64,000 nt of DNA from a virus (IMGVR_UViG_3300037721_000031:1-64000); one strand, 5' to 3'. Numbered from the stretch's first letter, positions 111-62,598 are shown. Numbers and translations are program-made. Notes: generated by a model not told the origin, from the letters alone.

Positions 111-157
111 GCATAATAGAGTACAGGAGCCTGGGCTCCTGTACTCTATTTATGTCG
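111..157. terminator. GCATA...TATGYC palindromic element
   Basis: GCAT-AATAGAGTACAGGAGC-ctgg-GCTCCTGTACTCTATT-TATGTCG; A12 tract upstream. Confidence 0.8.
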
Positions 158-164
158 TCGTAAA

Positions 165-941
165 TCAAGGTGTGGTTACTGCTCTCTCAAAATCCCATTT
201 ATCTCTAATGAGTCTTCTATAGAGTTTATGATAATCCACGTTATATTCTTCAGACCATTCTGAAATTGTTTTAGTAATTCCATTAAATACATATGTTCTG
301 GCTATTTGGACTTTAATCGAAGTATTAATTGCATCCTCCACAGACCATCCCGACTCTTGTAGTCTAGATACTAATGTATTATGGCATACGCGATTGATTA
401 AAGCTTCTGGTAGTTTAATCAATTCAGCTATTTGATACTTTCTACCATTATACTCATAAAACACGTTGTTTCTTTTATTATTCTGTTGCTCCACACGAGT
501 AGACCATTTACAATTGTTCTTTTCATAATTACCATCATTCTCTCTACGATCGATAGAATGATCTGGGCTGGGTCTTGGTCCCATATCTTCGTAGAATGCT
601 TCGAATGAATTCAACCATCTGTCACAAACAGTAATACCTCTACCACCGTAGTCGTGATATCTTGGACAATTTGAATTAATACATCTTTGAATTATTAGAG
701 ACCATATACGGTACTCCGGACTACTACTCATTCCGTGAGTGGTGACTGTTTCTTTCCAGAGACACCCGCAACTACCAGTATGAATATTGATAAGATTACT
801 AGTCGTCACTACAGTCTTATTTCCACAGTCACAAACACAGTTCCATCTAGCACTACCATTTCTTAGCCCTATTGCATTTTTACTTATTACAGTCAGCCTA
901 CCAAATTTCTGTCCTGTAAGATTTATTTTTGTTTTCACCAT
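165..941 (-). CDS. Free-standing HNH homing endonuclease
   Basis: G.KFGRLTV, WNCVCDCG and SCGC N-terminal motifs; YGGRGITVCDRW; HSIDRRENDGNYEKNNCKW..EQQNNK HNH core; two C-terminal HTH-like modules. Confidence 0.9.
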   Translation of the reverse strand: MVKTKINLTGQKFGRLTVISKNAIGLRNGSARWNCVCDCGNKTVVTTSNLINIHTGSCGCLWKETVTTHGMSSSPEYRIWSLIIQRCINSNCPRYHDYGGRGITVCDRWLNSFEAFYEDMGPRPSPDHSIDRRENDGNYEKNNCKWSTRVEQQNNKRNNVFYEYNGRKYQIAELIKLPEALINRVCHNTLVSRLQESGWSVEDAINTSIKVQIARTYVFNGITKTISEWSEEYNVDYHKLYRRLIRDKWDFERAVTTP

Positions 942-1000
942 TTTCTCAAACCTATAAAATTAATTAGTATTCTTGATCATCATTGTTTTCTGATCAGTAT

Positions 1001-1019
1001 TGTAATATAGGTTTGAAAA
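1001..1019 (-). promoter_or_regulatory. Early (virion RNAP-type) promoter motif upstream of HNH
   Basis: Minus strand TTTCA-AACC-TATATTACA; TATTAC is the phiKZ early-promoter core. Confidence 0.7.
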
Positions 1020-1032
1020 GATATTAACTACT

Positions 1033-1087
1033 GCATACAGCCGGATCCACTATGGATCCGGCTGTATATGTTGTATTTTTTTTTTTA
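1033..1087. terminator. GCATA...TATG palindromic element
   Basis: 15-bp stem 1035-49/1053-67; T tract 1076-87. Confidence 0.8.
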
Positions 1088-1089
1088 AG

Positions 1090-1974
1090 TTAAACTACAA
1101 TTCTGTATTTTTCGTAAGCGGCTGCAAGTTTTTTATCATAGTCTCGCTGGTTTGGTCCGTTATATGCGAGAGCAAAAGCCAACCAATCTTTAGAACGAAG
1201 AGCAGGCAACAGTCTTGGATCAGCCTTACCTTTAATAAATTCCACAAAACCTAAAAGTTGATTGCGTTCAGATACGTCAAAGCTAGCCACCATGTCGTTT
1301 ACAGTTGAAAAACCCATGTTAACATGATGGTAACCCATGATCTGGGCCAGACCCCATGAACAAGACTTTCTAGCACATTCTCTATTCAGAATAGCTGCCT
1401 TATCTAATCTATTATACTCACTAAATCCGCCAATATATCCACCCGGTGTACTGTTATAGATATCAGGTTGAGTATTTGTGAGATGCTCCTGTACGGTAAG
1501 GATAGGGTCACGTGTACCCTGAGGCTTGATACTGAGTACAGCCATTATCTTCTTGACGAGTTCAGGATCTGCAGCCATTGCCTTATTCAGCTCCTTACGG
1601 AACTGATGGCGTTCAAATAAAATGATAGACCGTCCATCATCTAAGAAACCAGCACCTTTACTCTCAACTTCACGGACAGCCTTGATAGCAGCCACTTCAA
1701 CATTCAGCTTTGTTGCTGAGTCGATGAAGTCTTGTTCTTCCAGAAATCTCCTGTCGATATAAGCACCAAGTGTGGCTGCAGTACCATCACCGAACACACC
1801 AGTCTTAGGAAAGCCAAACCTAGCCTGCCATTCGATTAAACGCTGTTCCGTACTTACACCAAAATCACCATCTGTCTTCAAGTTAATCTTAAGAATTTCA
1901 TTGAGAGCACGTTGTATAAGTACAACGTAAGGTCCCGTGCTACCCTTTTTTAAAACCTGCGTAGGGATTGTCAT
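1090..1974 (-). CDS. Modular endolysin: peptidoglycan-binding domain + N-acetylmuramidase (DUF3380-like)
   Basis: LKKGSTGPYVVLIQRAL..DGDFG PG-binding repeat; AIKAVREVES, ILFERH, SWGLAQIMG and FALAYNGP muramidase motifs. Confidence 0.88.
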   Translation of the reverse strand: MTIPTQVLKKGSTGPYVVLIQRALNEILKINLKTDGDFGVSTEQRLIEWQARFGFPKTGVFGDGTAATLGAYIDRRFLEEQDFIDSATKLNVEVAAIKAVREVESKGAGFLDDGRSIILFERHQFRKELNKAMAADPELVKKIMAVLSIKPQGTRDPILTVQEHLTNTQPDIYNSTPGGYIGGFSEYNRLDKAAILNRECARKSCSWGLAQIMGYHHVNMGFSTVNDMVASFDVSERNQLLGFVEFIKGKADPRLLPALRSKDWLAFALAYNGPNQRDYDKKLAAAYEKYRIVV

Positions 1975-2029
1975 TTTCTAAGCTCCTAATTAATAAGGTA
2001 CATTTATAAAATTTATGCATGTAATTACA

Positions 2030-2065
2030 CGGCATAAAAAAGAAGATCAGGTTTCCCTGACCTTC
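2030..2065 (-). terminator. Intrinsic terminator whose U tract runs into TATGCCG
   Basis: Minus strand GAAGGTCAGG-GAAA-CCTGATCTTC-TTTTTTATGCCG. Confidence 0.75.
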
Positions 2066-2303
2066 CATATCCCTGCTTATCTTTTTTATAGAGATCGTTT
2101 AGATCTAGTTATTGAAAACATTTTAAATCAATGGAGCAGTTACTAGATCTAAATGGGGTAGCCCAACTGCATTGACTGTACTAACGGGTAACTGTCATAA
2201 CTGACAATAGTTACTCATGTATAGCTAAGTTATTACTTGCTTTTAATTAATGAGTATTTGTATACCTTCGTCTTTGTACATAGAATATACATAACAGAGT
2301 AAA

Positions 2304-2717: not shown

Positions 2718-2743
2718 TGGACTACAGACGTGCTCTTGACCAG

Positions 2744-4246: not shown

Positions 4247-4262
4247 TTATATCTCTCAGTAA

Positions 4263-4784: not shown

Positions 4785-4990
4785 AATGAATTCCAGAATT
4801 GTTAATAATTTAAGGGTGTATAGCTTATTCTATTTTTTAATAGAAATGGATATGTACTGTCAGGACTCTGACAATGAAACATAATAGTATATCCCTTGCC
4901 ACATTATGACGTTATCAATGTAATTTTTCCAGATAACTCAGTAATTATTTGATACAACAGAATCTACTGTATTCTAATAAAAGGCACTTT

Positions 4991-7366: not shown

Positions 7367-8083
7367 ATGACAATTATGTCTACTCAAATCCAATCGCCTA
7401 CCTCCTCAGATCAAGACAGTCAGTCGAGTCCGGATCAATCCGTGCCAGCGCCGAGTCCACTGGACTTCATCGGTACAAGCTCTCCAGAATCCTCGGTGGA
7501 ACAGGTCACTGTAGCTCCTGTAAGTGCTCCGAGTGCACCAGTATTGACGACTAGTACTAAGACTACTCCAGTTGTTAAAAAGAGCGCTGCAGCCGTTGTA
7601 GTTGACTGGCCTGAAGTAACCGGTATCCCTGATGCAGATCGTGCATTGAAGAATGTTCCTCTTGCACATCAAGTTAGTATCCAGCGCATTATGGAATACG
7701 CTGTAAAGATGAATCCTACTAAGCCCATTGAAAATACTGATGGTGCTAAGATGCAAGGTTCTCTTTTCAAGATTATCCAGAATGTGATCAATCGTGAAGA
7801 GACGTACTTTAGGCAAATCTTTACAGCTATTCTTGCAATCTTTACACATGACAAGAGTGGTGCATTTAAGGAAGCGAACGTGTATCGTTTTATGGATAAT
7901 ATCGCTATTAACGATATTGAACGTAAGGCTTTTGTTCGTCTTCTGAATATGATCAGGTTACTTGGTCCTAAGGAAAGCCGCGCTACCGCACTCAAGCAAA
8001 TTGACATGACTCAGACTCTGCAATTTGGTTTAACTGATGCTGGTAGACAACGAGTGTTTAGCTTCTTTAATATCAATAAGTAA
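7367..8083 (+). CDS. Hypothetical protein with S/P/Q-rich disordered N-terminus
   Basis: 238-aa ORF preceded by a purine-rich RBS-like tract. Confidence 0.7.
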   Translation: MTIMSTQIQSPTSSDQDSQSSPDQSVPAPSPLDFIGTSSPESSVEQVTVAPVSAPSAPVLTTSTKTTPVVKKSAAAVVVDWPEVTGIPDADRALKNVPLAHQVSIQRIMEYAVKMNPTKPIENTDGAKMQGSLFKIIQNVINREETYFRQIFTAILAIFTHDKSGAFKEANVYRFMDNIAINDIERKAFVRLLNMIRLLGPKESRATALKQIDMTQTLQFGLTDAGRQRVFSFFNINK

Positions 8084-8099: not shown

Positions 8100-8155
8100 G
8101 ATAGCATATTGAGACAGAGTCCCGTTCAGGACTCTGTCTTATTTATGCCGCTATC
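8100..8155. terminator. GCATA...TATGCC palindromic element (convergent junction)
   Basis: 12-bp stem 8111-22/8129-40; GCATA 8104; TATGCCG 8144. Confidence 0.8.
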
Positions 8156-8162
8156 GAAACCA

Positions 8163-9005
8163 TTACCTCAGATGTAGTGTTTGAAAGTAAACAGAAAGCA
8201 TCTGTGTGAAGATTTTCACTGACCCACTAGGAACAGATAAAAGACTGATCCACTGCCCATTGTTCAAAATAAGAAGCTCTCGATGTTCTGAATTAAAAAG
8301 CCAGAGATAGCTAAGATTTCCAAAACGCAAGAATAGCTGATTGGGCTTTCCATCTTGTCTGACATCGTAGAAGCCTTCAGGATAATCAGTCAAATCATTC
8401 ACAGGTACTTCTGTAACGTCTTCAAGAAACGCTGGAAAACGGTCGCTTGGCTTAACTGTCCCTTTTCCTAGAGGATTCATTTCAGGAGACAGGTTTTGAA
8501 ACAACAGTCCATTCTCACCGATCAACTCAGACAGCTGACCTTTATAAATGGTTTCTTGTACAGAAGTAATTCGATCACCTGGCTGCTGAACGTGATGTGG
8601 TTGTTCTGAGTCTGACTCAATAATTTTCCCCATAGTAGTAATGGCATTACCAATACTACTGAGAATAGCATCCTTACCATTATTGATGGCCGCTGCAGCA
8701 GCTTTCATTTTAGTAGTGTTTTCAACATTACTATCTACTTCATCGGTTAAGTCACTATTTGAAGAAGCTTGCCTAGCAGCTTCAGAGTAAACAGAAGTTA
8801 AGCTAACAATGTCACACATTACTTTATTCAAGCTAGAGAATACTTCGAGCTCATTGGTTGATGAGAGATCGTCATGAGTATCCTTAAGCTCCTTTAAAAG
8901 TAAGTAATCTTCCCGTACTTTAATTTCTGCTTTAGTGAGAGATAGATTCATTCTATTCAACATAGCCAGTACAGTTTCTAGCATTTGAATCTGAGTCATT
9001 TTCAT
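8163..9005 (-). CDS. Hypothetical protein
   Basis: 280-aa ORF with coiled-coil-like N-terminal half. Confidence 0.7.
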   Translation of the reverse strand: MKMTQIQMLETVLAMLNRMNLSLTKAEIKVREDYLLLKELKDTHDDLSSTNELEVFSSLNKVMCDIVSLTSVYSEAARQASSNSDLTDEVDSNVENTTKMKAAAAAINNGKDAILSSIGNAITTMGKIIESDSEQPHHVQQPGDRITSVQETIYKGQLSELIGENGLLFQNLSPEMNPLGKGTVKPSDRFPAFLEDVTEVPVNDLTDYPEGFYDVRQDGKPNQLFLRFGNLSYLWLFNSEHRELLILNNGQWISLLSVPSGSVKIFTQMLSVYFQTLHLR

Positions 9006-9073: not shown

Positions 9074-9109
9074 GCATAATAGGCAGAGCAATTTAGCTCT
9101 GCCTATTAT
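9074..9109 (-). terminator. GCATA-flanked hairpin
   Basis: 14-bp stem 9076-89/9096-109; A tract upstream. Confidence 0.75.
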
Positions 9110-9157
9110 TAACCTAAAGTATGCGGGTATGAAAATGAATCATAGCCAAGTGGCGTA

Positions 9158-9814
9158 TTAAAGTGTACACCGCTTAGCTATTGGCTCTTCTATAGCCTCT
9201 TGAACAGAATAACCATATTGACGAATTCTAGAGTTAAATGTATGTTTATTTATGCCATTATCTAAGGCTTGTGGTAATTGAAGTAATTCTTTAGCCGAAT
9301 ACTTCTTCCCCCTGTATTCGTAAAACACATTATTTCTTTTATTATTAGCCTGTTCAGCCTTAGTGGCCCAGTAACAGTTACCTGGTTCGTAACCTTTATC
9401 GTTTTCTTTACGCTCTATGGAGTGTTCTGGGCTGGGCCTGGTACCCATATCAGAATAAAAATTCTCAAATGAGTTTAACCATCGATCACAGACTGTAATG
9501 TTTCTACCACCATATCTCTCATAGTTTATTACATTCGGATTACTACAACGGCTGAGCATGGCTCTCCAAATATCGTGTTCCGGGGAGCCCGTCATACCGT
9601 GAGTTGACATCCTTTCTGACAGTAATTTCGATCTAACACATCCGCAGCTAGTAGAATTACCGGTAGTTAAGTTACCACTGGCTATAGTGGTCTTGTTACC
9701 GCAGTCACAAATACAATTCCATCTAGTCCCGCCAGATAAAGACTTAACAGAGTTATGACTTTCAACAATTAATTTACCAAATCTTTGGCCTATTAAACTT
9801 ATTCTATACCCCAT
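9158..9814 (-). CDS. Free-standing HNH homing endonuclease (probable start ATG 9814)
   Basis: GQRFGKLIV, WNCICDCG, SCGC, YGGRNITVCDRW, HSIERKENDKGYEPGNCYW..EQANNK; the longer track start overlaps a perfect palindrome. Confidence 0.9.
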   Translation of the reverse strand: MGYRISLIGQRFGKLIVESHNSVKSLSGGTRWNCICDCGNKTTIASGNLTTGNSTSCGCVRSKLLSERMSTHGMTGSPEHDIWRAMLSRCSNPNVINYERYGGRNITVCDRWLNSFENFYSDMGTRPSPEHSIERKENDKGYEPGNCYWATKAEQANNKRNNVFYEYRGKKYSAKELLQLPQALDNGINKHTFNSRIRQYGYSVQEAIEEPIAKRCTL

Positions 9815-9842
9815 ATTTTCTCTTGTATTCAATAAAATGATA

Positions 9843-9882
9843 ACATAGAGTGCTGTTTGGTTTAAACCAAACAGCACTCTAT
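9843..9882. repeat. Perfect 38-nt loopless palindrome
   Basis: ATAGAGTGCTGTTTGGTTT-AAACCAAACAGCACTCTAT, 9845-9882. Confidence 0.9.
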
Positions 9883-13566: not shown

Positions 13567-13602
13567 TAGTGGTGGGTTATATTTAGGTATAACCCACCAC
13601 TA
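13567..13602. terminator. Hairpin between nvRNAP genes
   Basis: TAGTGGTGGGTTATA-tttagg-TATAACCCACCACTA. Confidence 0.65.
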
Positions 13603-13621: not shown

Positions 13622-15847
13622 CTAAATGTCGCTCTTTTCTTTAAGATCTGACACAATGTCGTCTTGATCTCGTGTTAGCCCACTACTTACATCAGGTCGA
13701 TGCGGCTTATAATGAAACTCCCAACCACCGCACATTGCATAATGCTTAACCAACTGGAGTGGTCTTGCATTACCTAGTGGATTATTAGTACGATCAACAG
13801 CAACAGGAATATTTGTAGGATGTTGTGATTCAAGAATAGAAGTCAACATTTGCTTATGTGTAAGCATATTGTTGTTTCTGTCGAGTATCTCTGAAGCTAG
13901 GATAGGACCGGCACAAGCTGTCGCAATACGAATTTCAGTTTCACCCCACGCACGGATAGCTTGATCGCGAGTTGGTTTAGTGTACTTGTCTCTATTATTA
14001 ATCTGAGCCAGCACACCAAAGTTCTGCCACTTACCGGAAGACACGGCGGTCCAGTCATCGCCAGTCTTCTCTAGTAACATAAGGTACATGCTACCTATTC
14101 TTACATTACTAACCGTGGTACATTTTTGACCAGAGTATCCGATGTAGCTGACAGGACCGTAAGTAGGCTTAAACTCCTCTTCAAGCTGCCTAACAATATC
14201 CATCCCAAGAACTTTATTATCTGGTGGATAATACAGATAGATTATCTCGCTTTTGATAATCGATTCCAGATACGAGATTATTGTCTTATCGTCAAAACTC
14301 AGAAAGTGTTCGTATGTGTGCGGTGTCACAATTTGCAAATACCGCATAACACGAGACCAGCAGTTATTCACTATCTCTTGACTAGGACTCTTTAGATTCC
14401 AGCCAACAGGAATCTTTTGTGGACCAAATAGCTTCAACTTGATTTCCTTAGCCAGATCTCTTGAAGCTGCATTGATGTATGGCTCGTATAGCCCACCAAT
14501 ATTCATACGGGAAATACGTGCATTCGGATCGACAACGATGTCTGCTCTGTTACCAGCTTCATCTACAGGCATCTCATGAGGTTCTGCAATATGACAAATA
14601 ACGCCTTTTCCACCATGCGTATCAGTTAGCTTAAATCCGATGGTTGGTTCGATAGTGTACTCTATAACGAATTCCACACGCCAATCATCTAGAGGGATTC
14701 CTCGATGAAGCTTTGATACACGTTCCGGAGCATCTTTCGTATTAGACACTGGTTTTATTGCTCCGAGTACAGAGATAGCCTCCACTACCAACCTGTTAAA
14801 CTCGTGAGTAATGGTGAGTGCCTTACCACGTTGCCTCTTGAGATTTTGATAGACATCATAAATCTCTTTATAATAACGCATACGTGCATCATTATAACGG
14901 TTAGTTTGCACTTCCATCCCAACAGGAGTAGTTGGTACGGTAGACTCTGGGTCATGCATGACTTTGATATCGATTACTCGCCCAGAAGCAATCTTGCCAT
15001 CTTTTATCTGACCAGGACCTGCCGCATAATAGCATGTATCAAAGATAGGATCAATTTCTCGAGTTCTACGTGTAGACGTTTCAACAGGTGCGAAGTTATC
15101 ACTATGTTGACGAAGTGCCATCAGAACACCATCAGAACGAACCATGTCCCCAATGTCAGGATGAGGTTTGTAGTTGTTTTCATCTCCGTAAAGATTCAAT
15201 GGATAACTCTTAGAGCCCCATTCAACAACTCGAGTTTCGTAAGTCTTGAACCTAAACTTCTTCAGAACGTCTCTAGATACGATAAAGCCATCTTCAGCCA
15301 CAGCAGGGTGTGACATAAATGCGACATTGCATTCACGACCATACTTGTATCCGCCTTGATCAGTGACTGACGGACTATCCAGTAGTATCGTTCCCTTGGA
15401 TACAAATTCACCTTTACGTAGCTTTGTTACTGCGGGACAGCGTTTGTATGCGAAACCAAAATACTGATGATGTGAGAAGTAATCTACAAGACTAAGACAT
15501 CCCACTTCTTTAGTATCAACGCTTTCAAAGATTACTAGCGTTTCAGGATTATGACCAATAGCGCCTTCGTCAATCGTACGCGGATAACGTTCGATTACTC
15601 GAATGATCTCGGCATCTACAGGCATTTTCACATTAAATGTATATTTACCGTATTCATGTTCCATCCCGGTCTGAATGAAACGTTCAGTAGATCCTTCAAT
15701 CACTAACATTTGAGTAACGTGACTACTGAACATCTGCTTTCTAGAAGCACTATCGTATCCAACAAATGGAGACAACCCTAGAACGCCTAACAACTCTCTT
15801 CTAAGTTGATTACCTGGTTCCTCAGGTTTTTGTGACTTCTCAGACAT
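13622..15847 (-). CDS. Non-virion RNA polymerase beta-like subunit, C-terminal part (gp71/73-like)
   Basis: AEDG catalytic motif, GFKLTDTHGGKGVI, RISRMNIGG, GSMYLMLLEK, WGETE. Confidence 0.92.
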   Translation of the reverse strand: MSEKSQKPEEPGNQLRRELLGVLGLSPFVGYDSASRKQMFSSHVTQMLVIEGSTERFIQTGMEHEYGKYTFNVKMPVDAEIIRVIERYPRTIDEGAIGHNPETLVIFESVDTKEVGCLSLVDYFSHHQYFGFAYKRCPAVTKLRKGEFVSKGTILLDSPSVTDQGGYKYGRECNVAFMSHPAVAEDGFIVSRDVLKKFRFKTYETRVVEWGSKSYPLNLYGDENNYKPHPDIGDMVRSDGVLMALRQHSDNFAPVETSTRRTREIDPIFDTCYYAAGPGQIKDGKIASGRVIDIKVMHDPESTVPTTPVGMEVQTNRYNDARMRYYKEIYDVYQNLKRQRGKALTITHEFNRLVVEAISVLGAIKPVSNTKDAPERVSKLHRGIPLDDWRVEFVIEYTIEPTIGFKLTDTHGGKGVICHIAEPHEMPVDEAGNRADIVVDPNARISRMNIGGLYEPYINAASRDLAKEIKLKLFGPQKIPVGWNLKSPSQEIVNNCWSRVMRYLQIVTPHTYEHFLSFDDKTIISYLESIIKSEIIYLYYPPDNKVLGMDIVRQLEEEFKPTYGPVSYIGYSGQKCTTVSNVRIGSMYLMLLEKTGDDWTAVSSGKWQNFGVLAQINNRDKYTKPTRDQAIRAWGETEIRIATACAGPILASEILDRNNNMLTHKQMLTSILESQHPTNIPVAVDRTNNPLGNARPLQLVKHYAMCGGWEFHYKPHRPDVSSGLTRDQDDIVSDLKEKSDI

Positions 15848-15894: not shown

Positions 15895-15914
15895 TAGTGA
15901 TATGTATCTGAAAC
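15895..15914 (-). promoter_or_regulatory. Early promoter variant upstream of nvRNAP beta-C
   Basis: Minus strand TTTCA-GATA-CATATCACT. Confidence 0.6.
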
Positions 15915-16344: not shown

Positions 16345-16401
16345 AAAAAAAAAAGAGCAGGGAATCACCCTGCTCTTCTCTATGCCGTCTTTTTTTTTTT
16401 T
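16345..16401. terminator. Bidirectional hairpin with TATGCCG (convergent junction)
   Basis: A tract; 10-bp stem 16353-62/16368-77; TATGCCG 16381; T12 tract. Confidence 0.8.
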
Positions 16402-21209: not shown

Positions 21210-21228
21210 TGTAATATGTGATTGAAAC
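21210..21228 (-). promoter_or_regulatory. Early promoter upstream of the sigma-like subunit
   Basis: Minus strand TTTCA-ATCA-CATATTACA. Confidence 0.75.
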
Positions 21229-21255
21229 AGATTTCATTGAACAGGTCTAATGGCC

Positions 21256-21292
21256 GCATAAGCAGGGAGTCTTAAGACTCCCTGCTATGCCG
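21256..21292. terminator. GCATA...TATGCC palindromic element
   Basis: GCATA-AGCAGGGAGTC-ttaa-GACTCCCTGC-TATGCCG. Confidence 0.8.
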
Positions 21293-21333
21293 CTATGCTT
21301 TTGTAGTGCTGTGTGGATTATCGATTTTAACTA

Positions 21334-24771: not shown

Positions 24772-24808
24772 GGCACAAGCAGACAAGAGGAACTTCCTCT
24801 TGTCTGCT
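24772..24808. terminator. Hairpin with variant GGCACA flank
   Basis: AGCAGACAAGAGGAA-c-TTCCTCTTGTCTGCT, 24778-24808. Confidence 0.7.
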
Positions 24809-26857: not shown

Positions 26858-26896
26858 GCGATAGAGCTATGGCCTTTGGCCATAGCTCTTATGCCG
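26858..26896. terminator. Palindromic element with TATGCCG
   Basis: 12-bp stem 26863-74/26878-89; TATGCCG 26890. Confidence 0.8.
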
Positions 26897-26917
26897 TCAA
26901 ATCACTTTTTTAGTCTT

Positions 26918-29178: not shown

Positions 29179-29214
29179 AAAAAAAAGAGAGACCACCCGA
29201 AGGCAGTCTCTCTT
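29179..29214 (-). terminator. Classical intrinsic terminator after chimallin
   Basis: Minus strand AAGAGAGACTGCC-TTCG-GGTGGTCTCTC-T8 (cUUCGg loop). Confidence 0.9.
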
Positions 29215-31165: not shown

Positions 31166-31311
31166 TATAATTTCCTTTTTCAGATGAGGTTAAATTTAAG
31201 CTCTTTGCAAAGAGTATAAAGCTCAAGAACATATCACATTAGAAAGACTTTTCATCCCTGAAGGTCGATCCAACGCTCGATTATAATAACATCCGCATTA
31301 TAATCCAGATA

Positions 31312-31611: not shown

Positions 31612-32700
31612 ATGCATAACCTACTAAGGCTTATCGATTCTATAGACCAGGGATTACCTAGCTTCCCTGTCTGGGAATTGCTTCGTAGAGGCCTATCTCT
31701 TAATCTTGACAAAATTACTAGTCACTATCACCGATTCCCTGGGAGAGTAAATGGTTCACACTTCCTGGTAAAACTCATCAATAGCATGAACGTGTCACTT
31801 AATCAGCCTCTTGATCGCTTTTATTCAAATATGAATACTAAGGCTTTAAGTGTATCTCAGTCATTAATGATGACATCTTCTATTAGTACAGGTAGAGTGT
31901 TTGACGGATATTTCTATGGTGAAGGTACCAAAGAAATACTGATTGCTCATGATGAAGGTTTTGATTTCTATAAAGCATCTCAGAACTGGAGAGAGTTGCA
32001 GCCTATTAGAGTATTACGTCATCCTAAAAGTGATCTAGCGTTAAATATACCAGATGGCAATTCGTACAACATTGAAGAAGGCATTGCTGTTATAGCTATT
32101 AACTTACCAATGTTGGCGCTGCAATACCGTGAGTATCAGATTTACGAAGACTCAGTAGCTCTCTCTAGAGGTGAATCGCCTCGTGGATTGACACATTACA
32201 TCTATAGTTACGCATTGACAAATATGATGTACAGTCATCTAGATGTAGCCATATTTAACAGATTGTACAACTTACTAATTGGTGCGCCTCTTGGGGTATC
32301 TACTAAGAAACACTCTTTCTACATTCAAGATTATGAAAGTAAGCTAACAGATCTTCAGTTACTTCAGCTTCGTATGTTAGAAAGAAATCCTCGTAAGTTA
32401 GACGCAATGATGCGAATGATTCCTCTTGTGACAGAAGCTAACTTATCAACCATGTCTAGATTACCAGACATGGTACCAACAAGACCTGTTGTATGGTCTT
32501 TAGTGCTGAGTCGATTACAGTTACTATCGTTTATATACGGTGCTAATACAGACGGTGCAAGAGTTAGAAACGGAACCGAAGTAAATAGAATAACTAGAAT
32601 GTTTCAGTTATTCGATATAGAAGAAGTGTTAGGTAGAATTCTACCTATTGATTACTTCCTTGATGTGAGCCAACAAATCAAGAAAATCACACAGGCATAA
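31612..32700 (+). CDS. Conserved phiKZ-like protein (gp52-like), function unknown
   Basis: 362-aa ORF divergent from chimallin; IRVLRHPKSDL and INLPML..QYR motifs. Confidence 0.65.
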   Translation: MHNLLRLIDSIDQGLPSFPVWELLRRGLSLNLDKITSHYHRFPGRVNGSHFLVKLINSMNVSLNQPLDRFYSNMNTKALSVSQSLMMTSSISTGRVFDGYFYGEGTKEILIAHDEGFDFYKASQNWRELQPIRVLRHPKSDLALNIPDGNSYNIEEGIAVIAINLPMLALQYREYQIYEDSVALSRGESPRGLTHYIYSYALTNMMYSHLDVAIFNRLYNLLIGAPLGVSTKKHSFYIQDYESKLTDLQLLQLRMLERNPRKLDAMMRMIPLVTEANLSTMSRLPDMVPTRPVVWSLVLSRLQLLSFIYGANTDGARVRNGTEVNRITRMFQLFDIEEVLGRILPIDYFLDVSQQIKKITQA

Positions 32701-32738
32701 AGACTAGAGCCTTGTAAGGCTCTAGTCTAATTATGCCG
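32694..32738. terminator. GGCATAA...TTATGCCG element (convergent; contains the stop codon of 31612..32700)
   Basis: 13-bp stem 32701-13/32716-28. Confidence 0.85.
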
Positions 32739-34945: not shown

Positions 34946-35001
34946 GCATAAAAAAAAAATAATGTCTTACAAATAGTGCTCCGTACGGAGCACTATTTGT
35001 A
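34946..35001. terminator. GCATA/A tract + perfect hairpin
   Basis: TACAAATAGTGCTCCG-ta-CGGAGCACTATTTGTA, 34968-35001. Confidence 0.75.
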
Positions 35002-36451: not shown

Positions 36452-36496
36452 CGGCATAAACACTGAAGCCCTAAGAAAGCTTCAGTGTTTATGCCG
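36452..36496. terminator. Perfect CGGCATAA...TTATGCCG element
   Basis: 18-bp perfect stem, 9-nt loop. Confidence 0.85.
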
Positions 36497-40300: not shown

Positions 40301-40354
40301 GCATAGTAGCCTATAGGGTCTCTCGTTTGAGAGACCCTATAGGCTTTTTATGAC
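40301..40354. terminator. GCATA...TTATGAC element after phuZ
   Basis: 17-bp stem 40308-24/40329-45. Confidence 0.8.
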
Positions 40355-42293: not shown

Positions 42294-42349
42294 GACATAT
42301 GAGAGCTATAAGCTATTCAATAAAGAATAGCTTATAGCCTTTTATGCCG
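42294..42349. terminator. GACATA...TTATGCCG element (convergent junction)
   Basis: 14-bp stem 42305-18/42325-38. Confidence 0.8.
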
Positions 42350-43521: not shown

Positions 43522-43555
43522 AGGACTAGGGGAATGTTCCCCTAGTCCTTTATGT
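43522..43555. terminator. Hairpin with TATGT between nrdA and nrdB
   Basis: AGGACTAGGGGAA-tg-TTCCCCTAGTCCT, then TTATGT. Confidence 0.7.
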
Positions 43556-43562
43556 AAGCGTA

Positions 43563-46331: not shown

Positions 46332-46369
46332 CGGCATAAAACCCAAGAGAGTAAGTCCCCTGGGTTTTA
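46332..46369. terminator. CGGCATA-flanked hairpin
   Basis: TAAAACCCA 46337-45/TGGGTTTTA 46361-69. Confidence 0.55.
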
Positions 46370-46400
46370 CGTTACATATCTGACTCTACTAACTAGACAT

Positions 46401-47515: not shown

Positions 47516-47557
47516 CTACTGCTGAAACATATTATCTTACAAACTAAGGACACAATA

Positions 47558-48175
47558 ATGGCATCCATCATTCGAAACGCTCTTGCTTCTATGGAAGGTA
47601 TGGAAGTAAAGCTGGAAATCACTCAAGCACCAGTTGTTAAAGAAGATGTGGTCGTTCCTAAAATGACCACTACAGTTGTTACTAACACTACTACTGTTGC
47701 AAAACCTGTAGACGATAAAGAAGAAGTAAAGATCGTTTTAGATGGTCCTTTATCAAGTATCTATTTTAAAGCCCTTAACATTGCCTATGCAAAACCAGAT
47801 CCAGTAACTGGAATGGTATCTACGGAATCGTTGGCACTTACGGACTACTACAGAGCTGCTGAGATTCAAAAGAAGTTAGCTAGTGAAGTCGTCACACACG
47901 AAGTGGAAGAAGCAGTTAGTTCTAATCCTAGCAGTACTGCACTAGTTGCCCCGATGACTAAGGATGAAGTTATTCCTGTCGTTAAGGAACTTATTGATGT
48001 CAGTGGTGGAGCACCTACTGATTTTTGTATTGTATTTAACACCATGGCTCCAACTCATTACTCACCTATGGGTTCTTCTGATGGCGTGGAAGTTGTAGTT
48101 ATGGATCGTGCTCAACCAATTGCTTTTGAAGACATTGAAGGTGTAACGATTTTTGTAAAAATGAAAAAGAAGTAA
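47558..48175 (+). CDS. Probable virion head protein
   Basis: ASME and VSTES match the S/A/G-X-E prohead-protease cleavage motif of phiKZ-like head proteins; LDGPLS.IY..ALN..YAK motif. Confidence 0.5.
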   Translation: MASIIRNALASMEGMEVKLEITQAPVVKEDVVVPKMTTTVVTNTTTVAKPVDDKEEVKIVLDGPLSSIYFKALNIAYAKPDPVTGMVSTESLALTDYYRAAEIQKKLASEVVTHEVEEAVSSNPSSTALVAPMTKDEVIPVVKELIDVSGGAPTDFCIVFNTMAPTHYSPMGSSDGVEVVVMDRAQPIAFEDIEGVTIFVKMKKK

Positions 48176-48181: not shown

Positions 48182-48224
48182 GACATAAACAGACAGTTTC
48201 ATAGCGAAACTGTCTGTTTATGTC
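48182..48224. terminator. Perfect GACATAA...TTATGTC element
   Basis: 19-bp perfect stem, 5-nt loop. Confidence 0.85.
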
Positions 48225-48317
48225 GTCATTTAGACAAAGTTTTATTAATAAGATATATGCTTATAGTTTAAAAAATACATCAATACTAATGATTTGAACC
48301 ACCGTAAGAGGAGAATA

Positions 48318-48338
48318 GGGCGGGGGTTTGGGGGTGGG
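48318..48338 (+). other. Canonical G-quadruplex-forming motif
   Basis: GGG-C-GGGGG-TTT-GGGGG-T-GGG. Confidence 0.7.
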
Positions 48339-49029
48339 TTAAGAGGAGTTTCCTCTTATTATAGGGCGGGCGTAGCGACGACCTCTAATAGAGTAGTGGT
48401 GTTATACTTTTCTTACAGCCATAAACCATTCCACTATCCCAGGGTCAACAGGCCCTGGGGAATAGGTAATGATGGTTTTAATTAAAACATATATAAACGC
48501 GCGCGAGCGTGCGCATGTGTGATGTTATATAGTGAATAAATGAAATGATTTAAAAGAGTTATGAGCTATTTGTTTTAATAAGAGTATGAACTCTACCATA
48601 CATTGAAACAAATCTAACATGGATAAGTTTGAAAGGTTTTAGAGACATTATTAGTAGATATTTTAGAGAGCTATAACTAGAATATTCTTTACTACAGTAA
48701 CAACCAATACTCCTACTCTAAAAAAAGAAATTTTAAAACAATTCTTATTTTACTTTTTACACTACGTGTAGTAATATGAGTATGTCAATTTAATAAGATG
48801 TAAGTTAATCTAAAAATAAGAAAAAAGTATACAGTCTTAAATCTTAGTGATGATTATGATAATTTAAAAGATATACAAAGTGATCTATAAACGTTTACAT
48901 TCTTTATAGCGGGAATACTACTATCTAATGAAATTAAACGTTTGTAGATGATTCTGAAAAGATTTAGAACTATGTTCGACGTCTATTAGATTTGTATAGA
49001 TTATTTTTTACGATAAAAGGAATCTGGAA

Positions 49030-50702: not shown

Positions 50703-50745
50703 TGTATTCTACCTTTCATAACTACATCAGTTACGTTTATTAAAT

Positions 50746-50800
50746 ATAACGATCAATATGTCATGAGCTATAATGCTTAGACATATTGATCGTTATGCCG
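50746..50800. terminator. Long hairpin ending TATGCCG upstream of terL
   Basis: 17-bp outer stem 50746-62/50780-96. Confidence 0.75.
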
Positions 50801-50842: not shown

Positions 50843-53056
50843 ATGACTATCCTATTTGCATCGGACTGGGGTAAATACCCAGGTGCAATCATAGATTTAA
50901 AAACCCGCAACACTTCTTTTATTCGCATGGCGAGTGTACTGCGTTCAATGGGTGTTAAGAATCATGCTTTTCCTCTTGCACTGCATGATAAAACATTACA
51001 AGGTGTAGATCCTTTTGATATTACGAGACTCACTCTTGAACAGCAGTTACGTATTGCGTTAGAATGTAAAAATAATTATTGGTATTATTTTCGAGAGATA
51101 GCAAAAACTTCATCTATCGGTAGTACTGATTCTAAACCATTTCAATGCAATCGTGGTAACATTGCTTTAGCGTGGTTATTCTTTAACCACATTATGCAAA
51201 TTCTTATCCAGCCACGTCAGACTGGTAAGTCTTTCGGTACTGACACAATAATGACTTTGTTATTAAACGTCGTTTGTGTAAATACAAAAATAAATCTATT
51301 AACGAAAGATGATACGTTGAGGCGTTCTAATATACAACGCTTGAAAGATATTGCTAATGAATTACCAATTTATCTACAGCAAAAAGGTCCGACTGACTTA
51401 AACAATACTGAGGAAATTACAATTAATTCATTAGGTAATAGATATACAACACACGTTCCTCAGATGTCAGTTAAGAAAGCTATTGGTTTAGGTCGAGGTC
51501 TGACAACACCAATATTCCACATTGATGAAGCTCCATTTCAGTCAAATATAGAAATTGCTTTACCAGCAGCACTAGCCGCTATGGGTGCCGCTGTGGATAA
51601 GGCTGCCGATGAAGATGCTCCTTATGGTACTATTATTACAACTACAGCTGGTAAGAAGGATGATAAAGACGGTCGTTTTATTTATAACATGATGTCTGAA
51701 TCAGCTAATTGGACAGAACGTTTTTTAGACGCTGTTGATCATTCTGATTTAGAAAATATGATACGTCGTAATAGTCGTACTGGTAAGTTAAGAGTGTCGT
51801 GTGTTTTTAATCATCGACAACTAGGCAAGACAGATGACTGGTTACGTCGTAAGTTAGAAGAAGCTGTGCAATCAGGAGACGATGCTAACCGAGACTTCTT
51901 TAACATGTGGACTTCTGGCTCACAGACTAATCCATTACCTACAAGTGTCTTGGAAACAATCCGTGCTAGTGCTAAAGAAGTGAAGTATGTAGATATCTCG
52001 CCAATAAACGGTTATGTCACTAACTGGTACATTAATGAAGATGAGATAGAAGCTAGAATGGCGAATGGTCAATTCGTTCTAGGTATGGATACATCCGAAG
52101 CTTCTGGTGGCGATGATATTTCGCTTATTCTAGTAGATGTACGTACATTAGATTTAGTTGCATCAGGTACTTACAATGAAACTAATCTACTCATGTTTTC
52201 TAAGTGGGTAGCTCAGTGGTTTGTTAGGTTTCGTAACTTTACAGCTATTATTGAAAGACGATCTACTGGCGGTATGCTTCTTGATTATCTTCTCATTATG
52301 TTACCGGAAATGGGAATTGACCCATTTGTGAGACTGTTTAACATGATTGTTCATGAGAAAGATGAACAGCCTGAGCGTTACGCTGAAATTTGTCAACCAA
52401 TGAGTAGACGTGATTCTAATATTTACGTCAAGATGAAGAAGGCTTTTGGTTACGCCACCAGTGGATCTGGAGTAACTTCTCGCACAGCCCTGTATTCAGC
52501 AACATTGAAATTAGCCGCTACTCGTGCTGCATCTAAAATATATGATAAAAGTCTTATTGATCAAATAACAGGCTTAATTGTAAAGAATGGTAGAATCGAC
52601 CACGAAGATGGGGCACATGACGACATGGTCATTGGTTGGCTACTATGTATGTGGTTAATTACTTCTGGCGTTAATTTATCACATTACGGTATAGATACAT
52701 CTAAGTTAATGAGTAGAATTGTTGAGATTGAACATTTAGACCCTCATGAGATTTTTGAGAGACGGCAACAAGCTGATCTGAGAAAGAAGCTAGATGATCT
52801 TAGTGATCAATTAGCTAAAACTGCTGATGATTACGTGTCGATGAAAATTGAACATCAAATGCGATCATTAATGCACGGTATCACAGTAGAAGAAGATGAA
52901 ATTCTTTCTGTTGACGAAATGATAAGAATTAGTCGAGAGCGTCGAAAGACTAACAGACTTGATAAGTATTCATCGAGTAATGGACAGAATAATCATTGGT
53001 CTAAGTATCAACAACATACTCCGCAGTCTAGCGGGTATTTTGTAAGAGGTGTATAA
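50843..53056 (+). CDS. terL: Terminase large subunit
   Basis: PRQTGKS Walker A, FHIDEAPF Walker B, TTTAG motif III, LGMDTSE and AHDDMVI RNase H-like nuclease. Confidence 0.93.
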   Translation: MTILFASDWGKYPGAIIDLKTRNTSFIRMASVLRSMGVKNHAFPLALHDKTLQGVDPFDITRLTLEQQLRIALECKNNYWYYFREIAKTSSIGSTDSKPFQCNRGNIALAWLFFNHIMQILIQPRQTGKSFGTDTIMTLLLNVVCVNTKINLLTKDDTLRRSNIQRLKDIANELPIYLQQKGPTDLNNTEEITINSLGNRYTTHVPQMSVKKAIGLGRGLTTPIFHIDEAPFQSNIEIALPAALAAMGAAVDKAADEDAPYGTIITTTAGKKDDKDGRFIYNMMSESANWTERFLDAVDHSDLENMIRRNSRTGKLRVSCVFNHRQLGKTDDWLRRKLEEAVQSGDDANRDFFNMWTSGSQTNPLPTSVLETIRASAKEVKYVDISPINGYVTNWYINEDEIEARMANGQFVLGMDTSEASGGDDISLILVDVRTLDLVASGTYNETNLLMFSKWVAQWFVRFRNFTAIIERRSTGGMLLDYLLIMLPEMGIDPFVRLFNMIVHEKDEQPERYAEICQPMSRRDSNIYVKMKKAFGYATSGSGVTSRTALYSATLKLAATRAASKIYDKSLIDQITGLIVKNGRIDHEDGAHDDMVIGWLLCMWLITSGVNLSHYGIDTSKLMSRIVEIEHLDPHEIFERRQQADLRKKLDDLSDQLAKTADDYVSMKIEHQMRSLMHGITVEEDEILSVDEMIRISRERRKTNRLDKYSSSNGQNNHWSKYQQHTPQSSGYFVRGV

Positions 53057-53058: not shown

Positions 53059-53097
53059 CGGCATAAAGACCACGGGATTCCCGTGGTCTTTATGCCG
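53059..53097. terminator. Perfect CGGCATAA...TTATGCCG element (convergent junction)
   Basis: 19-bp arms separated by a single T. Confidence 0.85.
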
Positions 53098-53123: not shown

Positions 53124-53993
53124 TTAAACTTGTAAAGCCGTGTTGGCTAAACCAGTTACCCGAGAACCATAACCTTCGCTTTGCTTCGAAACATCAGCAG
53201 AGATTCCATCCACAAAGGATTGACGTGCATAGGGGTTCGCGCCCACTACAGACATGGAATCAAGCAGTGTCTGACAGAATGCGTCAACACCAATACCAGT
53301 TTGAGAAATAGCAGTGAAGTTGATGTCATAAGTAACAGCTTCACCAGCTGCAGCCAATTCACGCTTACCTGTGATTTCACCGGTTCCTTGCGGGAACATG
53401 TTAGTGCACAGCCAGCTCTTGACTACCTTTGAATGAGTAGGATCAGGTTCGATGAACGCACACGTCATCGAGTACATATCCATCAACATGTCAGCAGGAA
53501 CCTGACCGCCTAAAGTAGCAATATTAGCCACCTTAGAATCCGGATCCATCAACAGGTTACGAATCCATGCGCCCATGAAGCTAGCCACCGGCATGCCATA
53601 CTTTTCATTCCAGCGAAACACAGGGTTAGAACGTGCACGAGTCACATTCATGTAATCCTGATGCATTTCACCAGCGCCACCAACAGGCGATGTATCGTCA
53701 ACCGCAACTTCAAGACCTTGAGACAAACCATCGATAGAGATGGGATGGAGTTCAACAAGAGCTCTCAGAGTAGCTACCCAGTTATCCGGGTTAGACATAA
53801 ACTGGAAACCACGAGGAGCTTCCACTAACAGACAGATGAGATTACGACGAACGTATGCTTGATTGCTCACGACCCGAGTCAGGTCGTTTGCATATCCCAT
53901 TTGCCCACCGTAACGCAGATCAACCATTGGGTTTTGATGGCCAGCAGCAAAATCCGGGTTGTTCTGCAAAATTGTATTTGCAAGTCGTGCCAT
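53124..53993 (-). CDS. Major tail tube protein (phiKZ gp30-like)
   Basis: Follows the sheath gene; DLRYGGQMG, EKYG.P, EPDPT..V.KSWL..NMFP motifs. Confidence 0.8.
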   Translation of the reverse strand: MARLANTILQNNPDFAAGHQNPMVDLRYGGQMGYANDLTRVVSNQAYVRRNLICLLVEAPRGFQFMSNPDNWVATLRALVELHPISIDGLSQGLEVAVDDTSPVGGAGEMHQDYMNVTRARSNPVFRWNEKYGMPVASFMGAWIRNLLMDPDSKVANIATLGGQVPADMLMDMYSMTCAFIEPDPTHSKVVKSWLCTNMFPQGTGEITGKRELAAAGEAVTYDINFTAISQTGIGVDAFCQTLLDSMSVVGANPYARQSFVDGISADVSKQSEGYGSRVTGLANTALQV

Positions 53994-54073: not shown

Positions 54074-54103
54074 AGTGGGTAGAAATTCTCACTTCTACCC
54101 ACT
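54074..54103. terminator. Hairpin between sheath and tube genes
   Basis: AGTGGGTAGAA/TTCTACCCACT. Confidence 0.55.
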
Positions 54104-57561: not shown

Positions 57562-57635
57562 TGCTCCAACTGGTGCCGTCCAATTTGTAAAACCGCTAGA
57601 ATATATTTACTAGAGGTCTTCTAGGATACACTTCA

Positions 57636-60257: not shown

Positions 60258-60276
60258 TTCTCTTAACAATTTCTAA

Positions 60277-60300
60277 GAGGGCTCTAGAAATAGAGCCCTC
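60277..60300. terminator. GAAA-loop hairpin between baseplate genes
   Basis: GAGGGCTCTA-GAAA-TAGAGCCCTC. Confidence 0.65.
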
Positions 60301-60321
60301 AATTTTGGAGCTATATTTAAA

Positions 60322-62025
60322 ATGAGTGATCCCATATCGACCAGTGGTATTTATGGGTCGGTCGACGGGCAGACTCCAATTTATAATGCCGCAGGACGTT
60401 TTACAGTTTGGGCATTGACGGAGATCTACCAAGGTACAATCGGTGAAAATCGGTATGTACCAAAGATCGGCGACTTAGTAAAAGACATGGACTTAGGTCT
60501 TGAGTTTAAGGTAACGGCAATTGATCCATCTACATTGATGGTTACGCTTCAACCAATTAATACTATTCAAAGTGGTGACTTTACTGAAGAAGATTTGTTA
60601 CTCGGTGTTGGACCTGGTACTCAGTCTGATACTTATCGTGTTTATCTTGACAGCAGTGTTGTGCCTCATGCTCTTGCCGTAGATGCACGACTGTCTGTTG
60701 CTGGGACGATGGCATCATACTGTCGTATCTTCCGTGGAGCAGATTTAACTAGTGGCGGTGACGTTATTAGTGGCTTCTATGATACTCAAGGAAACCTCAC
60801 AAGTGACGTTGTTCCGTTAGAAGTTGTGTACATGCCAGCTGGTCAGAATACGTCTATCAAGACTGTTCCGGTATGTTACACGATGGATACCCTTCCAGAT
60901 GGTGAAATCGTAACAGCGGTGATGTATTCGGATGCCGGACATGTAATCTCTAAGCGTCAGTTACTTATCGAAAATACTTCATTTATTCGTGCAGCTAGTA
61001 GTCCCGCGCGTTACATTACAGGTATTTCGTTAGAGTGTCCATTCCTGTCTACATCAGATACACGACTGATTAACCTTCCGATTAACGTATTACTTACCGG
61101 CATCAACATGCTGGGTGTCGTACACTACTCAGATGGTGCTGTTGTTAAGATGCCTGTGGACGGTACTAAGTTTGCTATTCTTGGTATGGACGGTTACGTA
61201 GCCACTGTTGTAAATCAACAAGCTTCATTAGTACTTCGCTATCGCTTGTCATCTGATGAAGTAGTATACGGTCACGGTACAGGAGAGTTTCCACATATCT
61301 CTGAAGCGTATCGGATTAAGACAGCTCAAGCTGACGGTGCATACAGTGTTAAGCTTTACTGCTATCCTATTTGGCTGGACTCAGTCAATGGGTACACTCT
61401 GCGTTGGTACATGTATAATGCTGATCGTACTGTAGTTTACAATGTGACAGGACTAGTAGAGATTAGTTCTACAGGACCTGCATTTAATCCTATTCTGTAC
61501 GGCGTTAATCAACGACTTTCTGTAGCTATTAATCTACAAGAGGTAAATGGTTCTTACCGTAACTACAGACATACTCAAACTGTCGAAATCATTCTGTGGA
61601 CTCCTGGATCCGAACATAATGATGTCAACTGGTCTATTGCATTCGATATTGGTCAAAATCCTCCGTTTGGTGTTGATCCGCATTATGCTGCATTAGAATT
61701 CGTTAACTCGAATCTATACCGTTTGAATTTAGCATCAGGAGCCACTACCTTGAATGAGTGGCTTGATAAGATATATTACAGTACTAAGCCATTGATTGAT
61801 CAACAAAGAGAATTAGTAGCGCCAGCTCCTACTCACTTTAGAATTAAGTTTGGTGTTTACGATCTCACATTCAATATTTCTGAATGGAATGTTACTAAGC
61901 AAATTGGTACCGGCTTAGCTAACAACGATACTGTATTTGTTGAATTTATTAAGCGTACTTCACTAACGGACATTCAACTCAGTATTGCAGGATTACCAGT
62001 ATGGCAGCTTTCTTCAGTACCATGA
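60322..62025 (+). CDS. Virion structural/baseplate protein (gp26-like)
   Basis: 567 aa; YVPKIGDLV.D and YSVKLYCYP.W motifs. Confidence 0.7.
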   Translation: MSDPISTSGIYGSVDGQTPIYNAAGRFTVWALTEIYQGTIGENRYVPKIGDLVKDMDLGLEFKVTAIDPSTLMVTLQPINTIQSGDFTEEDLLLGVGPGTQSDTYRVYLDSSVVPHALAVDARLSVAGTMASYCRIFRGADLTSGGDVISGFYDTQGNLTSDVVPLEVVYMPAGQNTSIKTVPVCYTMDTLPDGEIVTAVMYSDAGHVISKRQLLIENTSFIRAASSPARYITGISLECPFLSTSDTRLINLPINVLLTGINMLGVVHYSDGAVVKMPVDGTKFAILGMDGYVATVVNQQASLVLRYRLSSDEVVYGHGTGEFPHISEAYRIKTAQADGAYSVKLYCYPIWLDSVNGYTLRWYMYNADRTVVYNVTGLVEISSTGPAFNPILYGVNQRLSVAINLQEVNGSYRNYRHTQTVEIILWTPGSEHNDVNWSIAFDIGQNPPFGVDPHYAALEFVNSNLYRLNLASGATTLNEWLDKIYYSTKPLIDQQRELVAPAPTHFRIKFGVYDLTFNISEWNVTKQIGTGLANNDTVFVEFIKRTSLTDIQLSIAGLPVWQLSSVP

Positions 62026-62068
62026 TGATTATACTTTAATAAGTATAAGTACATTAGAAAAAAATATA

Positions 62069-62110
62069 GCATAATACACTAGGTCTCACAAGACCTAGTG
62101 TATTTATGTC
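62069..62110. terminator. GCATA...TATGTC element
   Basis: 14-bp stem 62073-86/62091-104. Confidence 0.8.
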
Positions 62111-62306
62111 ACTTAGTAAAAGCGTCTTGAATTGATAATTTTGATTTATATAACCTGTAATACACGTTTAAGATAACTTGGGTTACTAGTCACTAGCTCT
62201 GTAAAAGTTTAAATTTAGTTTTTTTATAATTAATGTCATGAATACCATCAGTATCTTTAATACAATTAATCTAAACGTGGCTAACTTAGCTATACATCTA
62301 AGTACC

Positions 62307-62540
62307 ATGAGTTTGATTGATTTAATTGTAGTTGTACTACCGTGGATATTATCAGTAACAACATTATGGATAACATTCATAACTGGGAATAAGCACCCTA
62401 GAACATGGTTTTTAGGATTAATTAATCAAGCGTTATGGTTAGTGTGGATACTACTTTCCAAGAACTGGGGGCTGATTCCACTTAACGTAGGTCTTTGGAT
62501 TATTTATTACAGAAATCATCGTAAATGGACTAGTGAATAA
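62307..62540 (+). CDS. Small 3-TM membrane protein, half-PnuC-like (probable start ATG 62307)
   Basis: Three hydrophobic segments; W.LGLINQ.LW and terminal Y.N..KW resemble one PnuC triple-helix bundle. Confidence 0.55.
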   Translation: MSLIDLIVVVLPWILSVTTLWITFITGNKHPRTWFLGLINQALWLVWILLSKNWGLIPLNVGLWIIYYRNHRKWTSE

Positions 62541-62556
62541 AAAAAAAATAAAGACA

Positions 62557-62598
62557 GCATAATAGCTAGAGCCCTGATGGGCTCTAGCTATTTATGCC
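62557..62598. terminator. GCATA...TATGCC element (convergent junction)
   Basis: 14-bp stem 62561-74/62579-92; A tract upstream. Confidence 0.8.

Follow-up and report, generated by a model that had tools for sequence, protein, structure and literature searches.

In phage phiKZ, 133 termination sites were mapped by ONT-cappable-seq (Putzeys et al. 2024, PMC10914365), and most of the predicted intrinsic terminators consist of a stem-loop and a TTAT region that together fit the motif BCCYCCCCHWWDGGGRRGGBYTTATKYYGT (E = 1.7e-212; PMC10914365). In phage 201phi2-1, a motif A shared by 59 terminators resembles the phiKZ motif and is often joined by a second motif, B, which lengthens the stem; these terminators lower downstream reporter expression in uninfected Pseudomonas chlororaphis, the two-motif, longer-stem ones being the strongest (PMC11512511). 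Here we analysed a family of intergenic hairpins with a conserved flank in bases 1-64000 (the window, 64,000 bases in all) of a single virus contig of 266,566 bases (IMGVR_UViG_3300037721_000031; 39.9% G+C). Judged from their sequence, these elements are very probably the transcription terminators of a phiKZ-like, nucleus-forming jumbo phage, of the sort mapped in phiKZ and 201phi2-1. The kind of element is known, and it represents neither a new class nor a new code; what is new is the uncultured lineage, the longer and varied stems and the CC variant of the flank. An initial annotation of the window had proposed a genome-wide punctuation code, and its location at gene junctions and its sequence-specific flank are both borne out, but the signal is the terminator motif already described for phiKZ and 201phi2-1.

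The initial annotation had reported about 20 hairpins with a conserved base, and a stable hairpin was indeed found at all 20 listed sites (RNAfold, -12.8 to -35.1 kcal/mol), in every case with CATA(A) and/or (T)TATG(C/T) at its base, which is far beyond chance. The anticipated excess over shuffled DNA was also observed, since the pattern GCATA-N14-44-TATGYC matched 12 times against 2.4 expected and none of 100 shuffles reached 12. For the genome-wide counts given below, hairpins were listed over the whole genome as perfect inverted repeats and junctions were taken from our own gene calls, a crude greedy longest-open-reading-frame (ORF) procedure by which small genes were possibly missed and a few junctions possibly misclassified; an RNAfold scan for TATG after structures of -8 kcal/mol or lower gave 199 matches, mostly in genes, and was excluded from the counts as too noisy. 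A hairpin stood directly before 51 of the 67 intergenic TATGYYG words versus 8 of the 125 located in genes (Fisher p = 8e-24). TATG was present in 83 of the 172 3' flanks of intergenic hairpins versus 9.6% of other intergenic 20-mers (p = 1e-38), and the four tetramers with the strongest enrichment there (GCCG, TGCC, ATGC and TATG) all occur within TATGCCG. Among the intergenic hairpins with stems of at least 10 bp, 53 of 84 carried the word on one or both sides, the chance level being 6-7% per side. A logo anchored on TATG gave the aligned 3' flank as TTTATGCCGT (T-T-T-A-T-G-C-C-G-T) followed by T/A-rich sequence; the base is thus conserved as first proposed, but the flank is longer than had been stated. 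Of the 20 window sites, 11 have at least 5 consecutive T within about 20 nt on one strand or both, in most cases beyond the motif; next to the stem the only U-rich stretch was UUUAU.

The match to the mapped phiKZ signal is close. Using the 3'-end coordinates given in the supplement of the bioRxiv version of the phiKZ study, 61 ends were placed on the phiKZ sequence; 31 of them had TATG within 10 nt, and 24 of these 31 ended between -1 and +3 of the G, RNA in phiKZ being cut short at UUAU(GY) a few bases past the stem. Palindromic GGCATAA-stem-TTATG hairpins of phiKZ have 3' ends on both strands (T012/T013, T018/T019, T059/T060 and T070/T071), aatggcataaGCCCTCCC...GGGAGGGCattatgtc being an example with the same palindromic base as found here. 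In phiKZ the stem-loop is followed by YTTATKYYGT and in the present phage by TTTATGCCGT; in both, the elements are intergenic, lie downstream of genes and take the two-sided GGCATAA-stem-TTATG form at convergent genes, and in 201phi2-1, too, two co-occurring motifs lengthen the stem. The differences lie in the stems, which are longer here (10-19 bp), far more varied than the GCCCTCCC/GGGAGGGC type of phiKZ and include a CTAG-rich subfamily, and in positions +5/+6, which are T/C in phiKZ but mostly CC here, as in phages RP12 and FLC9, with which the studied phage shares the TTATGCCGT variant. The stems of RP12, FLC9 and RSF1 are also unlike those of phiKZ (BCCYCCCC...GGGRRGG), which makes the stem consensus look like a trait of the lineage and not of the terminator class. 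In 50-kb pieces of phiKZ, FLC9, RP12 and RSF1 (37-57% G+C), TATG was enriched 4-33x in the 3' flanks of hairpins. It was enriched as well in most of the closer metagenomic loci, found via the RNA polymerase (RNAP) beta subunit, and the loci of the most distant beta homologues showed a weaker, inconsistent enrichment with small hairpin counts.

Conservation of the flank despite turnover of the stem was observed directly in a 256-kb contig (L005) with conserved gene order, whose beta subunit is 79% identical at the amino acid (aa) level. Four orthologous junctions carry hairpins in L005, all with stems different from those of the window, and three of the four keep the flanks: (G)CATAAA / TATGCT(G/A)T, TTATGCTG plus a T run, and CGGCATAG. 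The fourth (21334/19508) reads TCTTTATTCC, without the G. The persistence of the flanks through stem turnover indicates selection on structure and flank, not on stem sequence.

Gene content agrees with this kinship. The window encodes a chimallin-family shell protein (29258-31165, minus strand) and a split RNAP beta-like subunit with Rpb2 domain 6 (13622-15847, minus strand), whose closest relatives among named phages are those of FLC9 of Burkholderia (51% aa identity) and of RP31 and RP12 of Ralstonia (45%), with the wider phiKZ group coming next. The genomes of phiKZ and 201phi2-1, too, encode chimallin and split multisubunit RNAPs. Chimallin, the split RNAP beta subunits and the relationship with FLC9, RP31 and RP12 together mark the source, as predicted from its genes, as an uncultured phiKZ-like, nucleus-forming jumbo phage. 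The contig is 98% complete according to CheckV, and among the sequencing runs listed its sequence was present in one DNA run, a sediment metagenome that is probably the source sample, and in no RNA run. No match among GenBank phages was obtained by megablast with 8 kb of the contig as query, an IMG/VR protein-pattern scan with a 567-aa protein as query returned no relatives, and Rfam gave no match within the window at the gathering score.

The placement of the word along the genome is that of a stop signal. Of the intergenic TATGYYG copies, 23 were at convergent junctions (29 in the genome) and none at divergent ones (30 in the genome), and the 255 co-directional junctions held 27 copies that face sense and 16 that face antisense; hairpins with the word were counted at 14 of 20 convergent versus 2 of 10 divergent cases (p = 0.019). 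This distribution, rich in convergent junctions and free of divergent ones, is therefore the one expected of stop signals and not of promoters.

Table 1. Hairpin elements and promoter-like words, with flanking sequences
Position	Strand	Feature	Flanks	Context
111..157	both	putative bidirectional terminator	+ stem then TTTATGTCG; - stem then TTATGC + T12	convergent junction: gene 264623-266419(+) faces gene 165-941(-)
1033..1073		15-bp hairpin	sense (-) TATGCAGT; antisense (+) TATGTTGTA then T11	between two minus-strand genes
2030..2078	-	imperfect hairpin	sense strand then TTTTTTATGCCGTG	
8104..8150		putative bidirectional terminator	+ TTTATGCCGC; - ATATGCTATC then T7	between convergent genes 7367-8083(+) and 8163-9005(-); L005 orthologous junction keeps flanks, different stem
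9074..9111	-	14-bp hairpin	sense strand then TTATGCTGTA + T9	L005 orthologue TTTATGCTGG then T run
16353..16390		hairpin	+ stem then CTCTATGCCGTC + T12; - stem then T10	convergent junction; L005 orthologous junction keeps CGGCATAG, other stem
21250..21296		two-sided element	sense TTATGCGGC; antisense TATGCCGCT	between minus-strand genes
24778..24808	-	14-bp hairpin	degenerate sense flank TGTGCCTTATTT	absent from the initial list
26863..26897	+	12-bp hairpin	TTATGCCGTC	word only on the strand antisense to both neighbouring genes
32694..32738	both	two-sided element		convergent genes 31612-32700(+) and 32747-34879(-)
34946..35001	-	15-bp hairpin	sense AGACATTA, T10, then ATGCTGTC	motif after the T run
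36452..36496		perfect 18-bp palindrome CGGCATAAACACTGAAGC...GCTTCAGTGTTTATGCCG		
40301..40352		17-bp hairpin	sense (-) ACTATGCTGCGTCA then T7; antisense TTTTATGACA	
42294..42349		two-flanked element	+ CTTTTATGCCGT; - CATATGTCA	convergent junction, genes 41481-42284(+) and 42372-43490(-)
43522..43560	+	12-bp hairpin	TTTATGTAAGCG on antisense strand only	13 nt past the stop codon of the ribonucleotide reductase gene (43563-46142, -)
46332..46373	-	imperfect hairpin	sense strand then TTTTATGCCGTTTT	
48182..48226		19-bp palindrome GACATAAACAGACAGTTTC...TTTATGTCGTC		after gene 47558-48175(+)
50745..50800	+	14-bp stem, 17-nt loop	sense strand then TATGCCG	
53059..53097		perfect 18-bp palindrome CGGCATAAAGACCACGGG...TTTATGCCG		convergent genes 50843-53056(+) and 53124-53993(-)
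62069..62111		14-bp hairpin	sense (+) TTTATGTCAC; - TTATGCTATA then T7	
62557..62599		two-flanked element	+ TTTATGCCAT; - TTATGCTGTC then T run	convergent junction; stem paralogous to 88486, compensatory change
15897-15913	-	promoter-like word		window
21211-21227	-	promoter-like word		window
31221-31237	+	promoter-like word		window
47519-47535	+	promoter-like word		window
91430		promoter-like word		genome position
197582		promoter-like word		genome position
227069		promoter-like word		genome position

Two of the sites in Table 1 call for comment. The contig start (1-222) repeats its end (266345-266566) over about 222 nt, save for one base in an A run, and the record, although classed as 'linear', is probably circularly permuted or terminally redundant; because of this overlap, gene 264623-266419(+) comes to lie on the left of the first element (111), which is thereby convergent. 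At 50794 the hairpin that belongs to the motif is the upstream one (50745-50793) and not the small one downstream.

The two fixed ends of the hairpins are mutual reverse complements, and where both are present they are therefore simply the bottom of the stem, the two-sided base reading GCATAA...TTATGCCGT. About half of the elements in the genome are one-sided, as are the window sites 2030, 9074, 16381, 26890, 34946, 43551, 46332 and 50794. The fixed flanks first described are present at all sites, at many of them on one side only. The description of the inner stems as mutually unrelated was likewise mostly right, a 7-mer being shared by only 49 of 1378 stem pairs, but it overlooked CTAG-rich subfamilies (CTAG occurs in 14 of 53 stem arms versus 3.5% background) and two paralogous pairs of elements (142780-142807/215304-215331 and 62561-62592/88486-88517) that share both flanks and stems. 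Between paralogues, compensatory double substitutions were found (GGGC/GCCC versus GGAC/GTCC; GAGCC versus GAACC). Many stems have CCC/GGG at the loop, with no single consensus. In tandem arrays, 10 two-sided elements were counted against about 7 expected, the two sides being near-independent. Both two-way use and the longer stem that results could account for the two-sided form.

On this basis, we propose that the element comprises a stem-loop of 10-19 bp and, after it on the transcribed strand, the word (T)TTATG(C/T)(C/T)GT, to which a T/A-rich tail is often added. The hairpin would act as in intrinsic termination and, by homology with phiKZ, RNA synthesis would end at, or 1-2 nt after, UUAUG. 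Where transcripts are stopped from both sides, the motif would be carried on both strands, and its complementary copies would lengthen the stem, giving the GCATAA...TTATGC base. Like rho-independent terminators, the elements combine a G+C-rich hairpin with a U-rich stretch (UUUAU), A/T tracts on both sides would give bidirectional function, and the related elements halt the host RNAP in a reporter assay. What sets them apart from such terminators is a specific 10-nt word that takes the place of the U tract or breaks it up; any long T runs come after this word, 8-14 nt from the stem, and the word itself is conserved among phages whose G+C contents differ widely.

Several points weigh against this interpretation. 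Termination in this phage is proposed by homology, its sequence coming from a DNA run only. The word faces antisense in 16 of the 43 co-directional copies (sense bias p = 0.13), the sense bias in tandem arrays was not significant by position-weight matrix either (Wilcoxon p = 0.16), and among perfect palindromes sense-only and antisense-only cases are about equal in the present phage, phiKZ and RP12, in all three of which the two-sided ones are about as common as each. Nothing recognisable was found on the sense side of 43522, 173013, 174020 and 246214. A pure sense-terminator model does not predict the antisense copies; it needs antisense transcripts to be stopped as well. Read most simply, these copies would stop antisense transcripts at gene borders too, and with a late promoter of just four bases this is plausible. 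A further point is that the 201phi2-1 terminators stop the host RNAP too (PMC11512511).

The initial annotation had assigned the reading of the stem base to a phage factor. Reading at the level of RNAP is plausible, but a dedicated phage factor is not strictly needed, because the 201phi2-1 terminators function in uninfected host cells. Letter-by-letter conservation of the word in phages up to 20 points apart in G+C points to its being read by the phage polymerases, which in nucleus-forming jumbo phages are non-canonical, sigma-less multisubunit RNAPs. Short words read during elongation are known from the T7 class II signal ATCTGTT and from the bacterial elemental pause (G-10 Y-1 G+1), and the TAT|G step has the pyrimidine at -1 and the G at +1 of the latter; the present word differs from both in that it would always work beside a hairpin, and its reading by a polymerase is inferred here. 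In the promoter complex of the phiKZ non-virion RNAP (nvRNAP), the beta-like gp123 has, under the beta lobe, a pocket in which the non-template TATG (-3 to +1) is buried (PMC12809450). A gp123 homologue is encoded outside the window (145574-147283, minus strand); it is 31% identical to phiKZ gp123 and keeps 10 of the 16 named TATG-pocket residues, including the stacking F151, H185, H331 and Y406. With its RNA ending at the U that precedes the G, a polymerase would present TATG to the gp123 pocket in the promoter register, and this contact could give a sequence-specific pause beside the hairpin. Pyrimidine at -1 and G at +1 is a general pause rule of multisubunit RNAPs, which TAT|G fits. We regard such a pocket-dependent pause as possible, though with the balance against it: in phiKZ many of the 3' ends are found 1-2 nt beyond the G, the TTAT of several of its mapped terminators lacks the G, and in the complex engaged in transcription the pocket has been described as incomplete (PMC12809450). 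More tentative still is the broader proposal that one non-template-strand pocket of the RNAP reads TATG both to start RNA and, after a hairpin, to pause or stop it, the two-sided and antisense copies then being two-way insulators against promiscuous initiation.

The word is also that of the late promoters recognised by the phiKZ nvRNAP (5'-TATG-3'; Yakunina 2015; Chen et al. 2026), and RNA of the phiKZ terminators ends around the same T|G step at which promoter RNA starts. The outward-facing copies might themselves be late promoters starting at the G, which would turn the elements into terminator-promoter composites or into programmed sources of antisense RNA. The word is necessary for these promoters (PMC4666361) and is bound by the gp123 pocket, whose residues are kept here to the extent given above; the phiKZ late start P022 (39935) falls on a TATG after a weak hairpin; and the motif precedes the next gene by 20-130 nt in tandem arrays. 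We nevertheless hold this improbable, given that TATG alone is insufficient for initiation (PMC4666361), that the word follows hairpins and is lacking at the promoter-bearing, divergent junctions but abundant at the convergent ones, where no gene follows, that no start among P001-P004 and P008-P029 of phiKZ (first 50 kb) coincides with the G of a TATG in a terminator, and that the early promoters of phiKZ are located about 45 nt downstream of terminators. Promotion as the main function is contradicted by the junction counts and by these phiKZ start sites.

A marginally weaker candidate is a dedicated phage protein for termination, processing or export that binds the GGCAUAA:UUAUGCC duplex of the RNA hairpin or of a DNA cruciform, the polymerase itself not reading the motif. 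Where both halves are present they do form a fixed duplex under stems of any length, the motif is conserved over phages of 37-57% G+C, and many copies are two-sided or face antisense. One-sided elements, in which no fixed duplex can form, nevertheless make up about half of the total; the two sides are near-independent in tandem arrays, the 201phi2-1 terminators work without any phage protein, no candidate protein was identified, and nothing was found to favour the mRNA-export or cruciform-protein readings of the initial annotation; the proposal is accordingly a poor one.

It is less likely again that the hairpins are stabilisers of RNA 3' ends or RNase processing sites instead of polymerase stops. 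ONT-cappable-seq 3' ends alone cannot tell termination from trimming back to a stable hairpin, and the mapped phiKZ ends scatter from -1 to +3 around the G. The 201phi2-1 elements, on the other hand, cut downstream expression in a reporter terminator trap, a mere block to exonucleases needs no conserved 10-nt flank beyond the stem, and the placement on both strands at convergent junctions fits the control of polymerase traffic.

Elements acting at the DNA level, either attC-like recombination sites, a likeness raised by the initial annotation, or mobile palindromes of the repetitive extragenic palindromic (REP) or miniature inverted-repeat transposable element (MITE) type, could be suspected from the fixed ends with a variable middle, the few paralogous stems (142780/215304 and 62561/88486) and the extra gene 9158-9877 lying between hairpins and absent at the orthologous place in L005, but are scarcely credible: in keeping with the integrase reported as lacking, no tyrosine recombinase (PF00589) was matched across the whole 98%-complete genome although all control genomes matched, the attC core sites R''/R' (RYYYAAC / GTTRRRY) are not at the ends, which read (CG)GCATAA / TTATGC(CG), the elements are confined to the 3' ends of genes, and the stems differ between elements at orthologous junctions, so that the elements have been kept in place and not inserted. 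The REP/MITE-like possibility was rejected because near-identical copies are wanting, as the few stem pairs with a common 7-mer and the differing stems at orthologous junctions attest.

The extra gene is a 239-aa ORF (9158-9877, minus strand) without a Pfam match, bounded by hairpins at 9845-9882 and 9076-9109. In L005 the orthologous place lacks it, one terminator alone separating the neighbours, and the ORF has the appearance of an inserted cassette of one gene between hairpins. Elsewhere in the window, intergenic hairpins without the TATG word occur at 13567-13602, 29185-29214, 54074-54103 and 60277-60300, the second of which, after the chimallin gene, has a classical A/T-tract layout; some terminator-like hairpins of this genome fall outside the motif class. 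About 800 nt without a long ORF (48225-49029) follow the 48182 element and contain hairpins and G-rich repeats at 48340-48358.

A small family of promoter-like words, TTTCA(g/a)nCACATAT(C/T)A(C/T), was also found 23-375 nt upstream of start codons (Table 1). It resembles the core of the phiKZ early promoter, TATAT(T/C)AC, and is kept at two orthologous junctions of L005 (TTTCAGACACATATCA and TTTTCAGTCACATATCAC). The copy at 21219 lies about 45 nt after a terminator element, the same geometry as in phiKZ.

If these elements are terminators, as we consider very probable, their antisense-facing copies are the feature that needs explanation. With hardly a letter changed, the terminator word of phiKZ recurs in an uncultured lineage as well as in jumbo phages of Ralstonia and Burkholderia (52-57% G+C), even as the stems are replaced, and its retention across such G+C differences argues for selection through the polymerase and not through base composition. 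The word may be used to annotate transcription units in uncultured chimalliviruses.

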